From the NCBI GenBank assembly GCA_964016885.1, contig OZ024740.1, forward strand, positions 116,746,001 to 116,810,000: a stretch of 64,000 nt of DNA, given 5' to 3'. Every line of letters begins with the position of its first letter. Position 1 is the stretch's first letter. The translations under genes were made by a program, and so were the position numbers. This DNA is from Eledone cirrhosa. Lineage: Eukaryota. The notes under the pieces were generated by a model, which saw only the letters and a program-made list of their open reading frames with translations, was not told where the DNA came from and made no database searches. This document shows positions 9,256-30,670 of this stretch, piece by piece.

Positions 9256-11380
9256 TTATCTCTTTCTCTTAATTTCGAGTATATTTATTTGACCGGCTAC
9301 CTTCCTGGTGGCATGGTTGTAAAAGAAAAGAAATTGTCATCCCTTGAATCGCAAGAATGTTTTGCAAATTTTGAAGGTGCCAGCTATCGCAGCCATTTGT
9401 AGACTATGAATTAGGGAGCTGCGCTCTTTGTCCACAAATCCAAGTTCAGTCATACTTTGGTCCAAGCGGGTTGGTATATAACCCGTAGCTCCAATAATGA
9501 TGGGTATGAAGCTAAAGGTGTATCTTGGATACTGGATTTGTAAACTCCTCATCAATGGTCCGTACATGTCCTCCTTCTCCTGTATTTTTCTGACAACGTT
9601 TACATCAAGTGGGCAGCTGATCTCCACAACAGAACATGTTTTTAATGTGTGGTCACAAACAACAATATCAGGCCGGTTGTGCTTTAATTTGGTGGCAGTT
9701 TTTATTTTCAGGTTCTACCAGTATTCCTTAGTGCCATCTGTCTCAATATATTCTTCCTCGTTTGTTGTTAATTTTGTTTTCCGAAGTGCGTTCCAAATGG
9801 TTCTAGCTATCCCATCGTGTCTCATGGGGAGGTAGTAGCGAGATGACATTCTTTCGCAGCTGGCAACAATGTGGCTTACATCCTCGATCTTTGTTTTGCA
9901 TAGCCTACATTTATTGTCAGCTGATGGCCCTCCCCGTTTTGTGCAGCAGATATTTGGTAGGGAGTTCTTGTTCCTGTATTGCATAGAGATATCCCTCAAG
10001 GTGTGATGTCATAAACTTGTCGGAAACTCCATGCCAGGCTTTTTGAGTGGTTTATCCCCTCTATGGTCTGTGTTTTACGTCTCAAGTATCCATGCACAAC
10101 TTTTTCTGTAAATTGGTCAATTTTTTCATCTTGTTTGAACATTGAATAGGATCTTCCAATTTCTCTGGGTGAGAGATTTATATCAGGCTTTATTCCATAT
10201 CTCTCCTCCAGATCAGTGGCTATTCTAATGATATTTTTTTTTCATGCTCATAAACCTGGGCAAGATGGTTGCCAACCTTTTTCCTCTGATGAAGATGTTG
10301 CTTCAGTGTTACTATCCGGATCTCATATGATGTTAATATGGATTTTAGACCCCCGTCCACCTTCCTTGCGTGAGAAGTATAGCCTATCCACATCACCATT
10401 GATGTTAAAGTTCCCAGTAACACTGATAAGTTTGCGAGTTCTAACATCCATCTCACTTAGTTCTTGCAATGACCAGTTCAGCAGGCCAAATGTTGGCGTT
10501 AGAATTGGCACAGCATAAGTATTGTGGGCAATGTATTTGTTGTACGCTGACAGTTCTGATGACCATATTTTCTTTACTCTTCTGAGGTATTCAGTTCTGG
10601 TTCTCTCCTTATTTATGGGTCCATCATATCTGACATTCTCATCCTGTCCAAGATATCTGTAGTTGTCACCTGACTGTAGAGGTTGTATTTCAGGCCGTTC
10701 ATCTCTAGATTTCTAGAGGAGGGCACAGCTCTTCCACGTTTTACTGCCAAATATGCACACTTGGACTCACCAAATTTCATTTTGATGTCTGTTGAGGTCC
10801 AATTGTTTCTTGATGCCATTGATATTTGACCCATACAACTTCAGGTCATCAACAAACAAAAGATGGGAGATACTTCTGGACCTACTTCTTTGTCCACCTT
10901 GTTTCCTGAGTAGGTACGATAGTGGATTTAGTGAGAGAACGAAGAGTAGCACTGACAAGCTATCACCCTGAAAGATGCCCTTCTGGTAATGTATCTTATC
11001 AGTCTTAACTTGCTCCTTCTCACCTCTAAGGATCAAATTGGTGTACCAGTTCTTGGTCAGACGTTCAACAGCAGCTACCAGTGGTTGTGGGACTTTGGCT
11101 AACTGTAAGACCTTAACAATCCACCCATGAGGTACACTATCAAATGCCTTTTGATAGTCCGGCCACACCACAGTCATGTTTCTGCGATTCTTTGTTGTTT
11201 TTTCTTGAATCATTTTATTAGTTAGTAGGTGATCTATGCAACCCCACACCTCCCTCTTTCCACCAGCTTGCTCAGGTGTTATGATGTTGTTGGTAGCACA
11301 GTGATCCTGTAAGAACAGGTTAAGGCACACAGTATATAATTTATACATGATGTTTTGGCAGGCTATTGGGCGGTAATTTT
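9256..11380 (-). mobile_element. R4/Dong-clade RLE non-LTR retrotransposon, family B, 5'-truncated and frameshifted RT-CCHC-RLE
   Basis: NYRPIACQN, DYQKAFDSVPH, QGDSLS, LLFVDDLKLY (RT); CRLCKTKIEDVSHIVASC zinc finger; RHD, PDI and EISCP RLE motifs; 3' end AAGAGAAAGAGATAA(CATA)n. Confidence 0.92.
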
Positions 11381-11452
11381 TATGTATGTATGTATGTATG
11401 TATGTATGTATGTATGTATGTATGTATGTATGTATGTATGTATGTATGTATG

Positions 11453-11664
11453 TTCTTCTGGTTTTATAATTTCACAAATTTTTTCCCAAAAGAGAGAGAG
11501 TCGGTTTCTAACATAGACATAAGACTCTCTCATTGGAATTTACACTACATCAACTAGGTAGATTATGTATGCTTGCATGCATGTGTAGATATGAATGTTA
11601 TTCTATGTGTGGATGTATATGTTTTGAGTTGTATGTGTGCATGTGTATATGCTTTGTATCTGTA
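11453..11664 (-). mobile_element. R4-clade family A, 3' UTR-only insertion
   Basis: Highly similar to 8725-8935; (TATG)n on both sides. Confidence 0.85.
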
Positions 11665-13201: not shown

Positions 13202-14105
13202 GCTATCGAAACCAAGGTGAAAGTGTATCTGACTTGTGTCATCTACTCTTTGCTTTATGCCTGTGAAACGTGGGTCATACAGAAAGCACCTCAAGGAACT
13301 GGAGAGATTTCACCAACAATCTCTTCGTAAGTTACTTGGGGTGCGATGGAAAATGTTCATCAGTGATTTGGAAGTTCTCGAACGGAGCAGATGTGTGACT
13401 ATAGAGAGCATGATCTTTCGGCACCGGTTGAGGTGGTGTGGACACGTGGTCCAGATGTCTGATGATCGCATTCCAAAACAACTTCTCTACGGAGAACTAT
13501 GTGAAGGAAGGCGACCACCACACAAACTAAAAATGCGGTATCGGGACTTTGTCAGGGGCACCTTAGCTTGTGCTGTAATTTCATCTGACAAATGGGAGAA
13601 AATGGCTGAGGAGCGAGTGAAGTGGAGACATTTGATCAAGTCAGGTAGTGAACACTTTGAAACCCGTCGGAGAGAACACCTTACACTGAAAAGGAAGGTA
13701 AGGAAAGGAGACTGTTCTGAACTGCCTGCTGTTGAACATCATCTGGTTTGCCAGCTCTGTGGTCGAGTCTGCCTGAGTAAAGCTGGTTTGACTAGACGTG
13801 AACAAAGTCATATCAGTAGACCTCATGTAGATTATGTTCTGAAAGGTGTAAGGAATGTGGTAAGGAATGTGCTAGCATGGGAGGTCTCAAAAGACACACG
13901 AGAACACACAGCCAGAACAAAGCAATGGAAAGTCTCAGAGGAGCCTACAGTTGCCATATATGTGTCAGAGGGTGCAAGTCTTTGGCTGGTTTAAAGAGCC
14001 ACATTCGTGCCTTACATTTTTTGAGCATTTTACTTTGGCGATAGCAATGCTCGAACACGTTTACAGCCATCATAATGTATATATGCACGAAATCAAGTTG
14101 CAGCC
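13202..14105 (+). mobile_element. 5'-truncated RTE-clade LINE (thumb and C-terminus) with three C2H2-type fingers and a (TATG)n tail
   Basis: [58 protein letters not shown] are typical RTE motifs. Confidence 0.88.
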
Positions 14106-14261: not shown

Positions 14262-14902
14262 TTCTTCTGGTTTTATAATTTCACGAAGTTTTCCAATAGA
14301 GAGAGAGAGTCGGTTTCTAACATAGACACAAGACTCTCTCATTGGAATTTTCACAACATCAACTAGGTAGATATGTATGTATGTATGCATGCATGTGTAG
14401 ATATGGATGTTATTGTATGTGTGGGTGTGTATGTTTTGAGTTGTATGTGTGCATGTGTATATGCTTTGTATCTGTACATGTTTATATGCAGTTATTAGAT
14501 GCAACATTTTTGGAATGTTTTACATATTTTTACTGTTCCATTAATGGATTGTACTTGTAGTTTCCTAACTAGTTGTGTTCTTTCTGTTCCTGTGAAGCCT
14601 AGCTTCTCAAGATTTGTATTGTGGCAGTTACTAACATATCCCAGTGCCCCAACAGGCATAAATCTGAAGGTGTAATCAGGGTGGCGTATCTGCAGATTTC
14701 TCATCAGTTCTGCATAAATATTCTCCTTTTCACTAATCTTTGATATTATATTGGCATCTGTTGGGCAGCTAATTTCCACTACTGTGCATGTTTTCTTCTC
14801 CCTGTCCCATATCATAATATCTGGTCTGTTATGCCTGCATTTTATTGGGGTTTTTACTGGAACATTCCACCAGTACTCTTTCATATTATGTACATGGATA
14901 TC
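14262..14902 (-). mobile_element. R4-clade family A, 5'-truncated RLE end
   Basis: EYWWNVPVKT..KCRHNRPDIMIWDREKKTCTVVEISCP..KENIYAEL; same 3' UTR as 8725. Confidence 0.9.
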
Positions 14903-14980
14903 ATGTATGTATGTATGTATGTATGTATGTATGTATGTATGTATGTATGTATGTATGTATGTATGTATGTACGTATGTAC

Positions 14981-15058
14981 GTTCAGCGCATCGGTAGGGG
15001 TTCTCCTACATGGATATAAAGTAGTGGCCGTACTCGAAAACGAGTTGGCAGCCACCAT
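14981..15058 (+). mobile_element. Short 3' terminus of another RTE-like family inside (TATG)n
   Basis: Ends CTCGAAAACGAGTTGGCAGCCACC(ATGT)n, resembling the TTGCAGCC(ATGT)n end at 14105. Confidence 0.5.
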
Positions 15059-15394
15059 GTATGTATGTATGTATGTATGTATGTATGTATGTATGTATGT
15101 ATGTATGTATGTATGTATGTATGTATGTATGTATGTGCGTCTGTGTGTCTCCAAATCAACAAAGAAAATCTAGACGTAGTCAGTATATGGTGTGACAGTT
15201 CCAGTAATAGGCCTCACGTCAATACAACGCTACATGCAATCAGAATACGCCGAGATTGTCCCAGCAATAGGTCTCACGCCAACACAAGGCCACACGCAGT
15301 CAGTATACGTACACGGGCACACACAAGCCACCACACTGAAGTGATGAGTGTCATTGATATGGAAATACACAATTTCAGAAATTTTATAATTTTA

Positions 15395-17477: not shown

Positions 17478-19195
<1,718 letters not shown>

Positions 19196-20794: not shown

Positions 20795-24120
<3,326 letters not shown>

Positions 24121-24776
24121 GACCGTTGCACACGCATTGGTACACTGCTCGGGCGTAGCCGATCTGTGGGGCTATGTCGAACAACTGCTGTCAAGGGTGG
24201 GACCGATCCGGTTGACCACCGAGTCTATTGTAATGATCAAGCCGCCTCCCCCCTTCAAAGATGAAGCAGAGGCGGTGTTTCTGTGCGTAATAGCCATGGC
24301 GAAAGAGGTTGTATGGTGGACGCGTCTGTAAGGACTGAGGTCAGGCACCTTTCTCTCTGGCCAACAACTGGTCCGTTTCTTCCGATATCATTTCGGAAGA
24401 AGGATCAGGATGGAGAGAGAGGTGCTGCACCCCAGCCGTTTCTATGAAAGATGGGTGAAAGTGGCGAGAATGGCCCGTGTGAATGGGCCTTCACTCTACA
24501 TCAGACTATAGGTGAGGAAGATGAAAGACCAAGGGAGCACCCCTTCTCTGTGCTCCTGAGGAGAAGGGTTGCACACTTTTTTCGGGGGTGTGTGCGACCC
24601 CCCAAGGCGCCTCCTCTCTATTGAGGATTTTGTTAAAAATTTTATTTTTTGTTATATCTTATTTTATTTTTATATTTTGTTATTGCCTCCTCCTTATTGA
24701 GGACGCCTTTTTGTGTAAACTCCCCCCTTTGTACTTGTCCCACTTTTGATGCCCTAGTGGCAAATAAAAGAAACAT
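24121..24776 (+). mobile_element. Tx1-clade LINE family 2, short 3' fragment
   Basis: TVAHALVHC...[10 protein letters not shown]...SLYIRL*; distinct 3' UTR; (ATCT)n flanks. Confidence 0.9.
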
Positions 24777-25077
24777 ATCTATCTATCTGACGCGTGAAAC
24801 ATCGCCGGTAAGATTTTTCTAAATTTATATACGAAAAACAGAACAAATTGTTTAAAAAAACATATCATTTCGTAGGTCAACCCCCAAGCTGAATTGTCAG
24901 CTGGGTGGTAATCCCATTTTCGCCCCTTTAGGGGCGAACATTTTATTTAAAAAATTGTTTTAAAATATCAGATTTTACAAACTAAATAACTTGAACAACA
25001 CAAGAACGCTGGAGAACGTCAATAGAGAAAAGAGAGAGAAAGAGGCAGATATTAACGTTATATCTGGTTCTGCTACT

Positions 25078-26888
25078 ATGGACGTCGCCATAGATACGAC
25101 TGTCAACAATGAGGAAACAATTTTACTACTTGAAGATTTTAAAATTTCTACCGTCGAAGCGGAGAAAAATAACACTAACACACATGAAAACACAGGAATT
25201 AAACCCATTAACATACATACACATGAAAAAGACATCAACAACTTCACAGATACATCAACACATAATGTTTCACCTCGTCAAGGAACTGAGATTTCCAACA
25301 CCGAGGCTAACAACGATAACAGCAACAACAACAGCAACACCACACAAAAAAGAAAATGTCTTTCGCTGAAACAGTGAACAAAAAACAAGATTTTATAAAT
25401 CTTGATATTTCCAATGCAAGAGATATGCTCCAGCAAGGGAGACATTTGTAACTTTCGAAGAAAAAGGTGGGTTTAGAATTAACTCACCCCTTGAAATAAA
25501 GGAAGACACAATTCGCAGATCAGTCACCTTTTGGACTGTGTCAAATTCCACAAGAAAGCCGACATTTGTTAGCAGATATAGAAGCTACTTTCACAAGGAA
25601 ATTCTAGCAAATATCGATTTTCTCCAGCGAGGAAAACAGTACGGAAGTGTTTCCGTACTGTTTAAAAGCGAGGCACTCGCCCCAAAACATTCTGACACCA
25701 ATGGTGTCAAAAGCATACACCTTTTTCCCTACATACATGGGAAAAAAAGACACAAAAAATAAAAAATAAAAATATACCACCAAACATTAACATCTGGTGG
25801 ATCTTGGCTGGCTTCGTAGAGCCAGAAACTGATATGATTCTTTCGATACGAAAATCTATTCGACAAAGGTGGGCGGGTACTGATTTGGAGATTCTGTTGC
25901 AAATGAAACCGGAGAGAATCTCCAAAATACCCGAAAGAGTCGTCATCGATGATAACAACAAAATAAACATTTCGGTAGAAGGACGAACATTTCATTGCTT
26001 TTGCTGTGGTAGCACAGCACACCTAAAAGCCTCTTGTCCACAAACACACAACAACAACATCATTAAAAAACACTATTACCAACACCAACACCAAAACAAC
26101 CACCACCACCACAAGTACAACGACAGACGAAACGAGCAACCACACCAAAACAAACAGACACTCAACCAACAACAACAGAAAAAAACAGAGACAACACCCC
26201 TGAAGAACACAGGCCCACCCCATCCCACTCCATCAAACACTACCACAAACACACACACCGAAACACCACCACCACACAACATACCCCTACCCCACACACC
26301 TGACGATGATTATTCATCGACGGATGAAGCTGCTTCTCCTTCTTTAAGTGAAGAAGAGGGAGAGCCGCGGAAATCTAAAAAACAAAAAAGAGACACCTCA
26401 AAACCCCCTAAACTCCAATCACCAACACCAACACACAACCACAGACACAAACAACAACAAAAACAACACCACAGTCAAACATCCCTCTATCAGCAAAGCC
26501 AACACCAACACCACCCCAAACACAAACACCCACTATAAAAAGAAAACTCCCGGTCGAACAACAAACTAAAACAACAAAAACTCAAACAACAATATGCATA
26601 CACCAACACAAACAACAAGAATTTGATGGAGGTCATCTCCCAAAACCCTAAGGTGGAGACGGAGGGCAAAACTTTCGTCAAGGCAGAATCGTCTCCACAC
26701 ATTAAACTTATAAGGTTTCTATGGAAACCTATAATGACCTAAAAAATAAATTTTCACAGGACATGGGCAACCTCTGCCAGAAACCCATCAACCGCGTCCT
26801 GTTAAAATGTTTCCCCACCCCACCCAACAACCCATCCAGCACCCAAATGGAGATTGAACAACCCGATCTCCAGGAAACGAAAAGGTAA
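25078..26888 (+). pseudogene. Tx1 ORF1 (gag-like, single CCHC knuckle), disrupted by frameshifts; start codon uncertain
   Basis: SVEGRTFHCFCCGSTAHLKASC; C-terminus METYNDLK...PINRVLLK...MEIEQPDLQETKR* is homologous to 23354-23689. Confidence 0.8.
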
Positions 26889-26929
26889 GTGCACCTTTCG
26901 TCCTTTTTCTCCAACTCTTCTTCACCAAC

Positions 26930-29900
26930 ATGGCTAGTTTACGAGTTGGAAGCGTGAATGTGCGTGGCCTAGGGATGCCCTGGAAACAGGGCCAACTTTT
27001 AAACGACCTTATGTCACACGGTATGGATGTGATAGCCATCACCGAGTCCAGGATCCACAACAGGCAGCAACTAACCCCCATCTACGACGACTTTGAGATC
27101 TACGCATCTCTCTGTCAGTCAGGAGGTGGGAGTGGAGTGGCTGTCATATTTCAGAAGAACCTGGACGTCGAAGTACAGCAAGTACACTTGGACCTGGAGG
27201 GTAGACTGGTAGTCCTAGACGTGAACAGTATTGGAGGTGGAGCCTTCAGACTGGTGGCCGTTTATGCCCCGAGCGGGCAATCGCAATCACGGCCAGACTT
27301 CTTTAAGCGTCTAGAGTCTTTTCTGGGAACGTCTCGCTCCTTACATTTTGTGGGGGACTGGAATGGTATCCTAGATGCACGATGGGACTATGTGGGAGCA
27401 TGTCCCAGTAGAGCGGGGTGCAACAGCCTCAAAACTTTAATCGGCCAATTCCAACTGGCCGATAGGTATCGACTGGATTTCCCGACTGCACCACAGTGGA
27501 CGTGGGCAAACCACAGCGGGACATCTAGATCGTATTTAGATAGGTTCTTCATTAGAGAAAGGGACAAGGAGATGTTAAGCTGTCCACGAATGCACATGGT
27601 TGCCTATTCAGATCACAAATTAGTCGTCTGCTTAGTCAACCGTGATAGAATACAAAGACAGGGACCCGGATACTGGAAGCTGAACGTGTCGTTGCCGGCA
27701 CGTAAAGCTTACAGTGAACGGATAAGTAGACTAGTCAAGCAACAGTTAACGGGAGCCATCGTCAACAATAGATGGTGGTACTCTCTCAAGAAAGCAATTA
27801 GAATAGAATCGATAGGGTATAGTAGAGAGTTAGCCTTAGAGAAAAACAGAATAGAAAGAGAACTATTAGCCAAGGTAGAGGAGGCACTTAGAAGTGGCAA
27901 CGTGGCTAGAGTATTAGCGTCGAGAACGGCACTGGACCAGTTCTTCGATCCGAAACACGAAGGCTGCGTGGTCAGAAGCAAAACACGTGCTCTAGGAAAC
28001 GAAGGAGCGAAAGCTGTCAGCTGGGCCCGAGTGGCGGAGGCAAAAAGTGGCAACAAGTTCACCATTCAGTCTTTGAAAGACCAAAACGGACACGTGCTAC
28101 TTGACCCCAAGCAAATGTGCGCGGCCTTTCAGCGGCACTTTGCGCGACTGTTTGAGCAGAACGACGGTGAGCCGAACGGGGCAATGGACTTTAGTTCATA
28201 CCTCGACGGCCTGCCGCGTCTCTCGAACACGGACGCCGAGTTCTGCGAAAGACCGATCACGGACACTGAGATACGGGACGCTCTGGGCCGCTGCGGGAAA
28301 CGCAAGTCACCCGGTCTAGATGGTCTACCCTACGAGTTTTACATAGGCACGCCGGACTTGTTCTCTGGCGTCCTCGAAGCCGTCTACTGCAATTGGCAGC
28401 AGAACGGGAGAATTCCCAGTTCTGCAGGCAAGGGCGTAGTAACGCTGATCAGGAAAGACGAGAACAAGGGGGACGAAATTAACAACTTCAGGCCCATAAC
28501 TCTGCTCAACACAGAGTTAAAGATTTTGGCCAAGGTGCTAGCGACGAGGTTGGCGCTTGTCGTCGAGAACCTGGTAGGGAAAGCGCAAACGTGTGCAAAC
28601 CCGACCAGGTCCATACACGACAACCTCCACCTCATGCGATACATCATAGAGAGGGTGGGTAGTAAACCCGGCTTCGGTGGGGCTCTGATCAACTTGGATC
28701 AGTCTAAGGCATTCGATAGGGTCGACCATCGATACTTGGAAGCGGTTCTCAAGGCGGCCGGTTTCGGTTCCGTGTTCAGAGGATGGATCGAGGCGATGCA
28801 CACCAGCATCTGCTCGAGGGTCAAGGTGAACGGCTACCTATCGGAGCCGTTCGCAATCACGCGTTCCATTCGACAGGGATGCCCTCTCTCCTCCATTCTG
28901 TATGTATTGACTCTAGAGCCACTACTGCGGAAATTGGAGCTGTTGCAGGGCATCCCCCTAGAACCGGGACTGCGCAAAGCGGCGTCGGCTTATGCCGACG
29001 ACGTGACAGTAATGGTGTCGAGCACCTCGGAAATCGGGGTGATCGGCAACATACTGAAAGAATACGAAACGCTGACGGGAGCAAAACTAAACCCAGACAA
29101 GTCTGTCGGTTTGCAACTCGGTACGTGGAGAGGCAAACCGATGACATCCGACAGCGTCGTTGGACGCTGGACGGACGGACCGGTGAAATTGCTCGGGGTC
29201 TGGTTCGGTCCAGACCTCCAGGTGGAGAAAAACTGGAACGAGGTCACGGCCAAGGTGTTTGCACTCACTCAGAAGTGGGCAGAGTGCAAACTGTCCTTGA
29301 AAGGTCGAGCGGAGGTGGCGAACACTTTCATAGCGTCCGTCATCTACTACCGCTTGACTGTCGTGCCTTGTCCCCGTGAACACCTCGCCAAGATGGAACG
29401 CATGCTCTTCCAGTTTCTGTGGAAGAAGCAGGCTCCGCTGGTGAGGAGATCCGTCTGCTGTCAGCACCCTTCCAACGGAGGGCTGGGAATGCCGTGGCTG
29501 ATGATGCGCAAACATGCGCTGAGGCTGCGGCATCTCCAGGTATTCCTCACCGACCCCCTACCGGTGTGGGCACCGTTTGTGAGACAGGCTTTCCCACAGC
29601 TCGTCTCGCTAACGGAGCTGCAGTCCTGGGTGAAGAAAAGACCGAAAACGATGGGCGCCTGGCACATTGAATGCGCTCAGGCGCTCACAGTCCTCTGGCA
29701 AGCGGGCGCAGCAATCAATGGAGACTCCACTTCGACATTCTATAGAGGGATTGTACGTTACAAGGGCGACGACGTGCTCGGAGAGACTCTGGGCGTCGAA
29801 GACGATGAGCTCACCAGTATGTTTGGTAGGACTTTCCGCCCGGGACCTATGGACAACTTCCAGAGGTCCCTGGCCTGGCAGTGCTACCGAGGAGCTCTAC

Positions 29901-30376
29901 CGGTTCGTGACAAGATCTACAGGCACGGACGCCCTGGCAGGGATCCTTCCAAGAGGACGTGTCCAAGATGTGCGCAGGACATTGAAACAGTTCTGCACGC
30001 AATTGTACACTGCCCGGGCGTAAGCGACCTGTGGAACTATGCAGAACAACTGCTGTCGCGTATGGGACAAATACAGTTGACTGCCGAGTCCATAGTAAGG
30101 ATCAAACCGCCAGACTCTTTCAAAAACGAAAGAGAGGCGGTTTTCCTCTGTACGGTGGCTATGGTGAAAGAAGTTATATGGTGGACGAGGTTGAGAGGAC
30201 TGAGGACAGATGCCTTTCTCTCCGGACAACAATTGATTCCATTCTTTAAGTATCACTTTAGAAGGAGAATCAGGGTGGAGAGAGAGGCACTGCACCCCAG
30301 TAAATTTACTGAAAGGTGGGTGAATGAAGCGAAAATGGCCCGAGTGATTGGGCCTTCTCTGTTTATAAGCCTGTAG
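26930..30376 (+). CDS. Tx1 ORF2: APE endonuclease, reverse transcriptase and CCHC finger, 1148 aa, intact
   Basis: NVRGL, YAP, GDWN, SYLDR, SDH (APE); KSPGLDGLP, FRPITLLN, LDQSKAFDRVDH, RQGCPLS, YADD (RT); CPRCAQDIETVLHAIVHC. Confidence 0.97.
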   Translation: MASLRVGSVNVRGLGMPWKQGQLLNDLMSHGMDVIAITESRIHNRQQLTPIYDDFEIYASLCQSGGGSGVAVIFQKNLDVEVQQVHLDLEGRLVVLDVNSIGGGAFRLVAVYAPSGQSQSRPDFFKRLESFLGTSRSLHFVGDWNGILDARWDYVGACPSRAGCNSLKTLIGQFQLADRYRLDFPTAPQWTWANHSGTSRSYLDRFFIRERDKEMLSCPRMHMVAYSDHKLVVCLVNRDRIQRQGPGYWKLNVSLPARKAYSERISRLVKQQLTGAIVNNRWWYSLKKAIRIESIGYSRELALEKNRIERELLAKVEEALRSGNVARVLASRTALDQFFDPKHEGCVVRSKTRALGNEGAKAVSWARVAEAKSGNKFTIQSLKDQNGHVLLDPKQMCAAFQRHFARLFEQNDGEPNGAMDFSSYLDGLPRLSNTDAEFCERPITDTEIRDALGRCGKRKSPGLDGLPYEFYIGTPDLFSGVLEAVYCNWQQNGRIPSSAGKGVVTLIRKDENKGDEINNFRPITLLNTELKILAKVLATRLALVVENLVGKAQTCANPTRSIHDNLHLMRYIIERVGSKPGFGGALINLDQSKAFDRVDHRYLEAVLKAAGFGSVFRGWIEAMHTSICSRVKVNGYLSEPFAITRSIRQGCPLSSILYVLTLEPLLRKLELLQGIPLEPGLRKAASAYADDVTVMVSSTSEIGVIGNILKEYETLTGAKLNPDKSVGLQLGTWRGKPMTSDSVVGRWTDGPVKLLGVWFGPDLQVEKNWNEVTAKVFALTQKWAECKLSLKGRAEVANTFIASVIYYRLTVVPCPREHLAKMERMLFQFLWKKQAPLVRRSVCCQHPSNGGLGMPWLMMRKHALRLRHLQVFLTDPLPVWAPFVRQAFPQLVSLTELQSWVKKRPKTMGAWHIECAQALTVLWQAGAAINGDSTSTFYRGIVRYKGDDVLGETLGVEDDELTSMFGRTFRPGPMDNFQRSLAWQCYRGALPVRDKIYRHGRPGRDPSKRTCPRCAQDIETVLHAIVHCPGVSDLWNYAEQLLSRMGQIQLTAESIVRIKPPDSFKNEREAVFLCTVAMVKEVIWWTRLRGLRTDAFLSGQQLIPFFKYHFRRRIRVEREALHPSKFTERWVNEAKMARVIGPSLFISL

Positions 30377-30609
30377 GTTGAGGAAGAGAGCAAAAGGAAG
30401 AAAGGAGCACTTGCACAACACGCTCCTTGAGTTGAGGGTTGTTCTATCGACGGGGTATTAAACAACCCATTTGTGGCGCCTCCCCCCAATTGGGGATTTC
30501 GATTGTTGAAATTGTTTGTTTTTATATTTTTTACACGACTGTATGTAAAATCCCCGGCATGTCTTTGTATTGTCCCCTTTCTTGTTGCGCCCTTGTGGCT
30601 AATAAAGAA

Positions 30610-30670
<61 letters not shown>

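Follow-up and report, generated by a model that had tools for sequence, protein, structure and literature searches.

LINE copies in the window

The window analysed here, 64,000 nucleotides of the 3.0 Gb Eledone cirrhosa genome, holds between 17.5 and 30.7 kb a tandem pile of LINE copies, each inserted in (TATC)n tracts (Table 1). The ORF2 of the window carries the Pfam domains PF03372, PF00078 and PF13966, corresponding to an N-terminal APE-like endonuclease, a reverse transcriptase (RT) and a C-terminal Cys-rich domain, and its nearest solved structure is human L1 ORF2p (E 2.8e-53). Features of the L1 group are present: ORF1 is separate and upstream, 5'-truncated copies occur, and LTRs are absent. 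An Argonauta protein is the closest named relative of ORF2 (62% identity). Families A, B and C are 76-84% identical to one another in ORF2, and an additional active family, F, is 67-69% identical to them.

Table 1. Features of the LINE pile, with positions in the window
Feature	Position	Strand	Remarks
Family B copy, 5'-truncated	17509..19066	+	98.9% to copy L197
Family B copy, 5'-truncated and frameshifted	20827..22272	+	95.1% to L197
Family A ORF1, 5'-truncated, with donor	22387..23793	+	GT at 23686; plus ~27 ORF2 codons; 99.6% to copy L180
Family B 3' end fused to A fragment	23792..24045	+	97.7% family B; junction not GT-AG
Family A 3' fragment (family 2 of the original prediction)	24121..24775	+	Natural end of the 23686-type ORF1; 99.5% to L180
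Family C element, near full-length (family 3 of the original prediction)	24790..30612	+	Flanked by (TATC)n tracts; 92.6% to full-length copy L098
5'UTR donor-like CG|GTAAGA and AG	24806..24875	+	GT at 24808, AG at 24874-24875; possible 68-nt 5'UTR intron; joint second of 279 GT sites
ORF1 of family C	25078..26888	+	Frameshifted in the window copy; start codon uncertain
Donor motif AG|GTAAGT	26883..26890	+	ORF1 stop TAA at 26886-26888; top-ranked of 279 GT sites
Inter-ORF spacer, pyrimidine-rich	26889..26929	+	Ends CAAC before the ORF2 ATG; length and sequence differ between families
ORF2, 1148 aa, intact	26930..30376	+	Endonuclease, reverse transcriptase, zf-RVT; no internal AATAAA
Candidate proximal acceptor	27006..27013	+	Family YAG ends at 27012 (T there in the window copy); phase 2, in frame with ORF2
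Candidate acceptor, best pyrimidine tract of the 22 YAGs common to five families	27330..27350	+	Lost in the window copy; window z = 1.74, not significant
Originally predicted acceptor, AAG ending at 30369	30352..30369	+	After Pro-Ser-Leu codons; not conserved
ORF2 stop TAG then G, second possible acceptor	30374..30377	+	TAG|G at A, B, C, G and further 3' ends; the one H copy has TAG|A, active F has TAA
3'UTR of family C	30377..30612	+	AATAAA at ~30601; terminal block common to five families, then (ATCT)n

A CCHC zinc knuckle in ORF1 is a feature of Tx1 elements, and weak zf-CCHC matches below the curated cut-off occur in the A and B ORF1s, with none in F. A microsatellite, (TATC)n or (ATT)n, adjoins all window copies and the full-length copies examined, and the microsatellite targeting reported in PMC4494074 (in part) is consistent with the Tx1 label. 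Like the Tx1-clade elements Kibi and Koshi, as partly documented there, these elements combine two ORFs, an APE-type endonuclease with RT, a possible weak ORF1 zinc knuckle and microsatellite insertion. The targets differ: Kibi and Koshi use (TC)n and (TTC)n, whereas here A, B and C use (TATC)n and F, G and H use (ATT)n, a switch within a group whose members have in common a terminal block before the tail.

The ORF1 frame is open for at least 579 codons in intact copies; frameshifts are present in both ORF1s of the window. Family A has ORF1 and ORF2 in a shared frame, with a single TAA and eight sense codons between them (L180; window 23687-23713), so that readthrough would yield a fusion. In C and F the two frames differ. 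Family C 3' ends are ~100% identical across 40 copies and represent a very recent burst of truncated insertions; C ORF1 ends, by comparison, differ by ~3% (3' ends from window 30200-30612, L031-L060 and L101-L110). Four C copies that share the same mutations at ~28 kb spacing (L068-L071, C1:399.28-399.37 Mb) are a segmental tandem duplication.

The original prediction held that ORF2 as a whole is one removable intron, running from a donor on the ORF1 stop to an acceptor in the last ORF2 codons, and it paired the 23686-type ORF1 with its own ORF2 end. That element is instead a chimera of a family A fragment and a family B 3' end (22387-24045), joined at a junction that is not GT-AG (Table 1). 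The same A-B join is absent from the other 39 best matches, which match the A part only, and the chimera appears to be a single event. We therefore discarded the idea that 23686-23804 represents a natural family with a mini-intron. In full-length A copies the 3' end is what had been called the family 2 end, rather than the family 1 end assigned to this ORF1. The family 1 end belongs to B, in which the donor is GTGAGT in phase 1 and the ORF1 stop lies one codon further. HAL1s are half-L1 elements that form amplified DNA families. Their structure of ORF1 plus a 3' end resembles both the predicted spliced product and the 22387-24045 chimera; the chimera, unlike a HAL1, is single.

A consensus splice-donor motif on the ORF1 stop

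As predicted, AG|GTAAGT closes both window ORF1s, with GT at 23686 and 26885 and with TAA closing the ORF1 frame. This half of the prediction is real, and the motif is conserved more widely than the window shows. GTRAGT stands at the ORF1 end in 7/7 lineages (A, B, C, F, F2, G and H) found by searches that did not require the donor motif; G and H are each represented by one decayed copy, that of H with T at -1. Three others, C2, C3 and A2, also have GTGAGT and are excluded from this count because they were found with patterns that fix part of the context, while a C4 copy has C at +1. Variation in the donor is confined to +3 (A/G), and the stop alternates between TAA and TGA. The last Arg codon interchanges between AGG and CGG, always G-final; the donor persists through this change and also in B, which reads it in another frame. 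Free variation of the ORF1 stop context had been named as grounds for refuting the idea; the context proved conserved. For comparison, the F ORF1 is 26-33% identical to the A, B and C ORF1s over the main alignments, and the last 50-60 residues do not align.

Ranked against the general donor consensus, the motif is the best or joint-best match among the 252-316 GT sites of each of four elements (first of 279 in C, first of 280 in A, joint first in B and F). To gauge neutral retention we used fourfold-degenerate ORF2 sites, 70/229 of which are invariant over A, B, C, F and G (28/69 for G, 7/40 for T). This gives ~0.03 for the donor's three free positions, a post hoc estimate that refers to one origin. 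All families descend from one common ancestor, so the donor represents a single origin followed by retention, and on these figures its conservation probably exceeds chance.

Among distant L1/Tx1-like LINE loci, the G|TRA|G context was found at 0/42 distinct ORF1 stops, and one of these 42 elements has GTGAGT beside its stop. The distant set comprised 80 metagenome loci, most at 23-33% identity, from which 54 ORF2 ends and 42 ORF1 stops were counted after dropping 26 loci without a closed ORF2 end and 38 without a distinct ORF1 stop.

Acceptor candidates at the end of ORF2

The predicted AGs, ending at 18820, 22028, 23804, 24504 and 30369, are indeed present two codons before TAG, but the five ORF2 ends represent three lineages and not five observations. 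Nor is the AG kept: the penultimate codon is AGC or AGA in the window families and AAC, AAT, ATC, TAT or CGC in related lineages. Free variation of this codon had been set out beforehand as counting against the site, and in related families the codon does vary, to Asn, Ile, Tyr and CGC-Arg codons without the AG. Two ORF2 relatives (P0001 and P0002, the latter from Argonauta) have protein ends SMHL and NMRF, without the penultimate Ser; relatives P0003-P0029 are 37-41% identical. A YAG preceded by a tract had been described, but the site at 30369 is AAG. It is one of four tied for the best upstream pyrimidine count among 274 AGs, and the pyrimidines before it encode Pro-Ser-Leu in a conserved protein end. 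The ORF2-end acceptor does not rise above chance.

The stop TAG, proposed as a second acceptor, fares better in part. ORF2 finishes in TAG|G in A, B, C, G and further 3' ends, and in 1/54 distant ends, but it is lost in the intact, active family F, which has TAA. The F 3'UTR contains a T-rich CAG site that ties for second place among 209 YAGs. This site is missing from the one H copy, which is older and retains TAG. If ORF2 were removed whole, the stop TAG or a 3'UTR site would be a better candidate acceptor than the AG two codons earlier.

The spliced product had been described as ORF1 followed by (S/R)L and the ORF2 stop. That holds for A and C, but in B the join would add 46 residues. Near-native ORF1 products are predicted for A at both sites, for B at the second and for C at the first; other pairings would add 20-100 residues, with the TAG join adding 28 in C and the F joins adding 20 or 100. 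At TAG, the join would lead to an immediate stop in A (phase 2) and B (phase 1). A conserved peptide encoded in the 3'UTR was considered and rejected, as the frames differ.

Acceptor candidates within and before ORF2

Conserved AGs are frequent in ORF2: 58 AGs and 22 YAGs are common to five families, and 17/39 Arg columns are AGR throughout. Excess synonymous conservation was absent from every 15-codon window of ORF2 (maximum z 3.03 against a null median of 2.97). A YAG at 27012 is present in 10/10 lineages, as YAG|G in 8, and is coded by Leu-Arg-Ser; TTA-G at 27350 is present in 9/10. As selected acceptors, 27012, 27350 and 29745 were all rejected for want of a synonymous excess.

One C copy, L073, is deleted from the donor to within 1 nt of 27012. 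We rejected it as proof of splicing: it is one base off, its two ends share a 4-nt microhomology, and other deletions, of 370 and 16 nt, are without GT-AG.

Upstream of ORF2, a pyrimidine tract and YAG precede the start in B (L197, 7-30 nt before the ORF2 ATG) and in G (L321), and are absent in A, C and F. The B site is the top of 150 YAGs and a possible acceptor for an ORF2-only RNA.

Search for spliced copies

Precisely spliced genomic copies, which the original prediction led one to expect, were not found. Among 916 family A sites (911 canonical donor sites and 5 non-canonical continuations) none was spliced, and of the non-canonical donor sites in the other families, 0/63 in C (43 + 20), 0/4 in F and 0/3 in B, all of them read, were joined to the 3' end. 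These counts refer to copies with an exact 17-20 nt match upstream of the donor, and in B, C and F to non-canonical sites alone, outside C sites that begin with G followed by a base other than T and B sites with G at +3; full-length 5' ends did not enter them. A scan from the 3' side of 249 loci of the same genome likewise gave no join from donor to 3' end. At two 5'UTR sites there were no spliced copies, and no copy lacked the short 5'UTR stretch.

Most insertions are 5'-truncated, and 0/10 young C ends reach ORF1. A whole-ORF2 junction would nevertheless lie only ~240 nt from the 3' end, and the absence of spliced copies therefore argues against abundant spliced RNA in the germ line. The argument is weakened by cis preference, the tendency of L1 proteins to act on the RNA that encodes them (PMC5860796, in part), which could hide spliced copies.

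Two ORF1 protein searches for a spliced C-terminus gave two distant matches in one and none in the other. Logan contigs of four runs, of unknown kind and with rare forms dropped, were compared with 24800-30608 and showed no joint between the donor and either acceptor among the 15 listed of 383 joints, which speaks neither for nor against splicing. The depth profile of one run (X4) differs from those of the other three (X1-X3), although depth does not rank parts of the element.

Possible roles of the donor

Our best reading, held tentatively, is that the motif is a selected U1 site at the ORF1/spacer boundary without a fixed partner acceptor. Host U1 snRNP is likely to bind the motif, which would chiefly serve to shield the A-rich ORF1 transcript from cutting at AATAAA upstream, giving full-length RNA; any splicing would be a minor route, with acceptors turning over between families. 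In C, A and F, AATAAA precedes the donor by 140, 315 and 330 nt, with none nearby in B; the hexamer is present in ORF1 and absent from ORF2 in A, B, C and F. Recurrence of donor-like motifs near the 5' ends also favours this reading. The three hexamers upstream of the donor lack homology to one another, and chance alone would be expected to produce them in A-rich DNA. Because the ORF1 stop would lie inside the intron, a spliced RNA would end translation in the last exon. Against a pure guard, a LINE should pay a price for a strong donor that has no partner, a point in favour of its use in splicing. The U1 site of EVADE, which both splices and blocks premature termination (PMC5580714, in part), offers a precedent, with the difference that U1 binding is here read from the motif itself.

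That the motif has no splicing role is somewhat unlikely, though closest in weight to the U1 reading. It would then be an inherited stop context (Arg codon, TAA or TGA, G at +4) or part of a termination-reinitiation signal for ORF2, along with the pyrimidine spacer and the CAAC preceding the ATG. G at +4 is also a favoured stop context, and the pyrimidine bias of the spacer and the start context are conserved as well. The families have a single ancestry, the neutral-retention value is not negligible, conserved AGs and AGR columns are common from coding alone, and no spliced copy turned up at any tested site, the 5'UTR included. What a stop signal does not readily accommodate is that B keeps GTGAGT while its stop lies elsewhere, that the sole variation seen fits donor degeneracy, and that the motif is the top donor match in each element. 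The T at +5 and the G at -1 are not known to play a part in termination.

Removal of the whole of ORF2, yielding an ORF1-only mRNA as in copia, is unlikely even in an amended form in which the acceptor used with the donor lies at the end of ORF2 or shortly after it, namely the stop TAG in most families and the 3'UTR site in F rather than the AG two codons earlier; the junction exactly as first proposed is very improbable. In favour of the amended form, TAG|G recurs at the ORF2 end in A, B, C, G and others and rarely at distant ends, the TAG join would give an immediate stop in A and B, F, having lost TAG, has a T-rich CAG in its 3'UTR, and cis preference could account for the missing copies. 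It is opposed by the lack of spliced copies in all four families, by the unconserved first AG, by the residues that the TAG join adds in C and either join adds in F, and by an ORF2 without excess synonymous conservation. Taken further, a LINE clade may use the host spliceosome as a copia-like switch, with the ORF1 stop as 5' site and the ORF2 stop or a 3'UTR site as 3' site, between a full bicistronic template and a short ORF1-only mRNA kept out of retrotransposition; this is just as unlikely.

Improbable, too, and more so, is a short intron from the donor to an early ORF2 acceptor. A join at 27012 would take out the ORF1 stop together with the ORF2 start and create an in-frame ORF1-ORF2 fusion minus 28 endonuclease residues, and one at 27350 a frameshift and an ORF1-only RNA. 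The broad presence of both sites and the near-deletion in L073 speak for it, and junctions as far as 3.6 kb from the 3' end would seldom make it into a new copy. Yet coding explains 27012 and 27350, where any synonymous excess is not significant, L073 is off by a base and has microhomology and other deletions beside it, and the fusion would lose the first endonuclease motif.

Relation to known systems

Arabidopsis EVADE, other Ty1/Copia elements and Drosophila copia (PMC5580714, in part) likewise have a U1 site after the structural gene, and the copia intron measures ~3 kb, near the 3.5 kb of the intron proposed here. In these LTR elements gag and pol form one frame, splicing creates the stop and spliced RNA has been demonstrated, whereas here ORF1 has its own stop and the arrangement is known from sequence alone. 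Of the copia-type features, a conserved donor after the structural gene is present and a conserved acceptor at a fixed place is absent, the first AG being lost in several lineages and TAG in F. As the acceptor is not fixed and any spliced RNA here is hypothetical, we do not class these elements with the copia/EVADE system.

Human L1 RNA also has functional donors, acceptors and premature polyA sites (PMC5860796 and PMC2896524, both in part). In the SpIREs and SpORF2 described in these sources, donors in the 5'UTR lead to removal of the promoter or ORF1 and to ORF2-only RNA, whereas the present donor sits on the ORF1 stop. Spliced genomic copies are known for L1, where intra-5'UTR spliced copies make up ~1.8% of full-length elements, and were not found here. 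TART has spliced antisense and putative subgenomic RNAs (PMC1636488, in part). Recently active L1-Tx1 families have been reported in an octopus in a paper whose main text makes no mention of splicing (PMC13282606). A full-text literature search, which largely excluded subscription papers, Repbase Reports and repeat-library supplements, found no description of a donor on a LINE ORF1 stop or of an ORF2-removing splice in Tx1.

How LINEs produce far more ORF1 than ORF2 protein, and how their long intronless RNAs escape premature polyadenylation, has been addressed mainly in mammalian L1. With a donor motif retained on the ORF1 stop by families that diverged deeply and are still active, U1 control in a LINE could be probed at a single site. 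Were whole-ORF2 splicing true, a non-LTR element would have converged on the copia strategy; were the motif a U1 guard only, it would be a transposon's use of telescripting. With at least 900 strong donors contributed by a single family, the elements could also supply host transcripts with ORF1 exons.

Further features of the elements and the window

In A, C, C2, C4 and F, further donor-like motifs lie within 19-75 nt of the 5' end (L184 ~1070-1140; L316, L194, L186, L196), and in A and C a T-rich TAG lies ~67 nt past the motif, resembling a short 5'UTR intron. Intact F elements are found in head-to-tail arrays, ~6 kb apart with short (ATT)n between them (L323-L329; C1:441.10-441.14 Mb and C28:97.18-97.21 Mb). 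Elsewhere in the window, translations judged by eye suggest fragments resembling the ORF2 of other LINEs (RT-like and C-terminal) at 10767-11471, 13233-13994 and 14495-15169. At 34446-35165 are a 151-nt unit in two identical tandem copies and a 206-nt unit, SINE-like by eye, in two tandem copies (90%).
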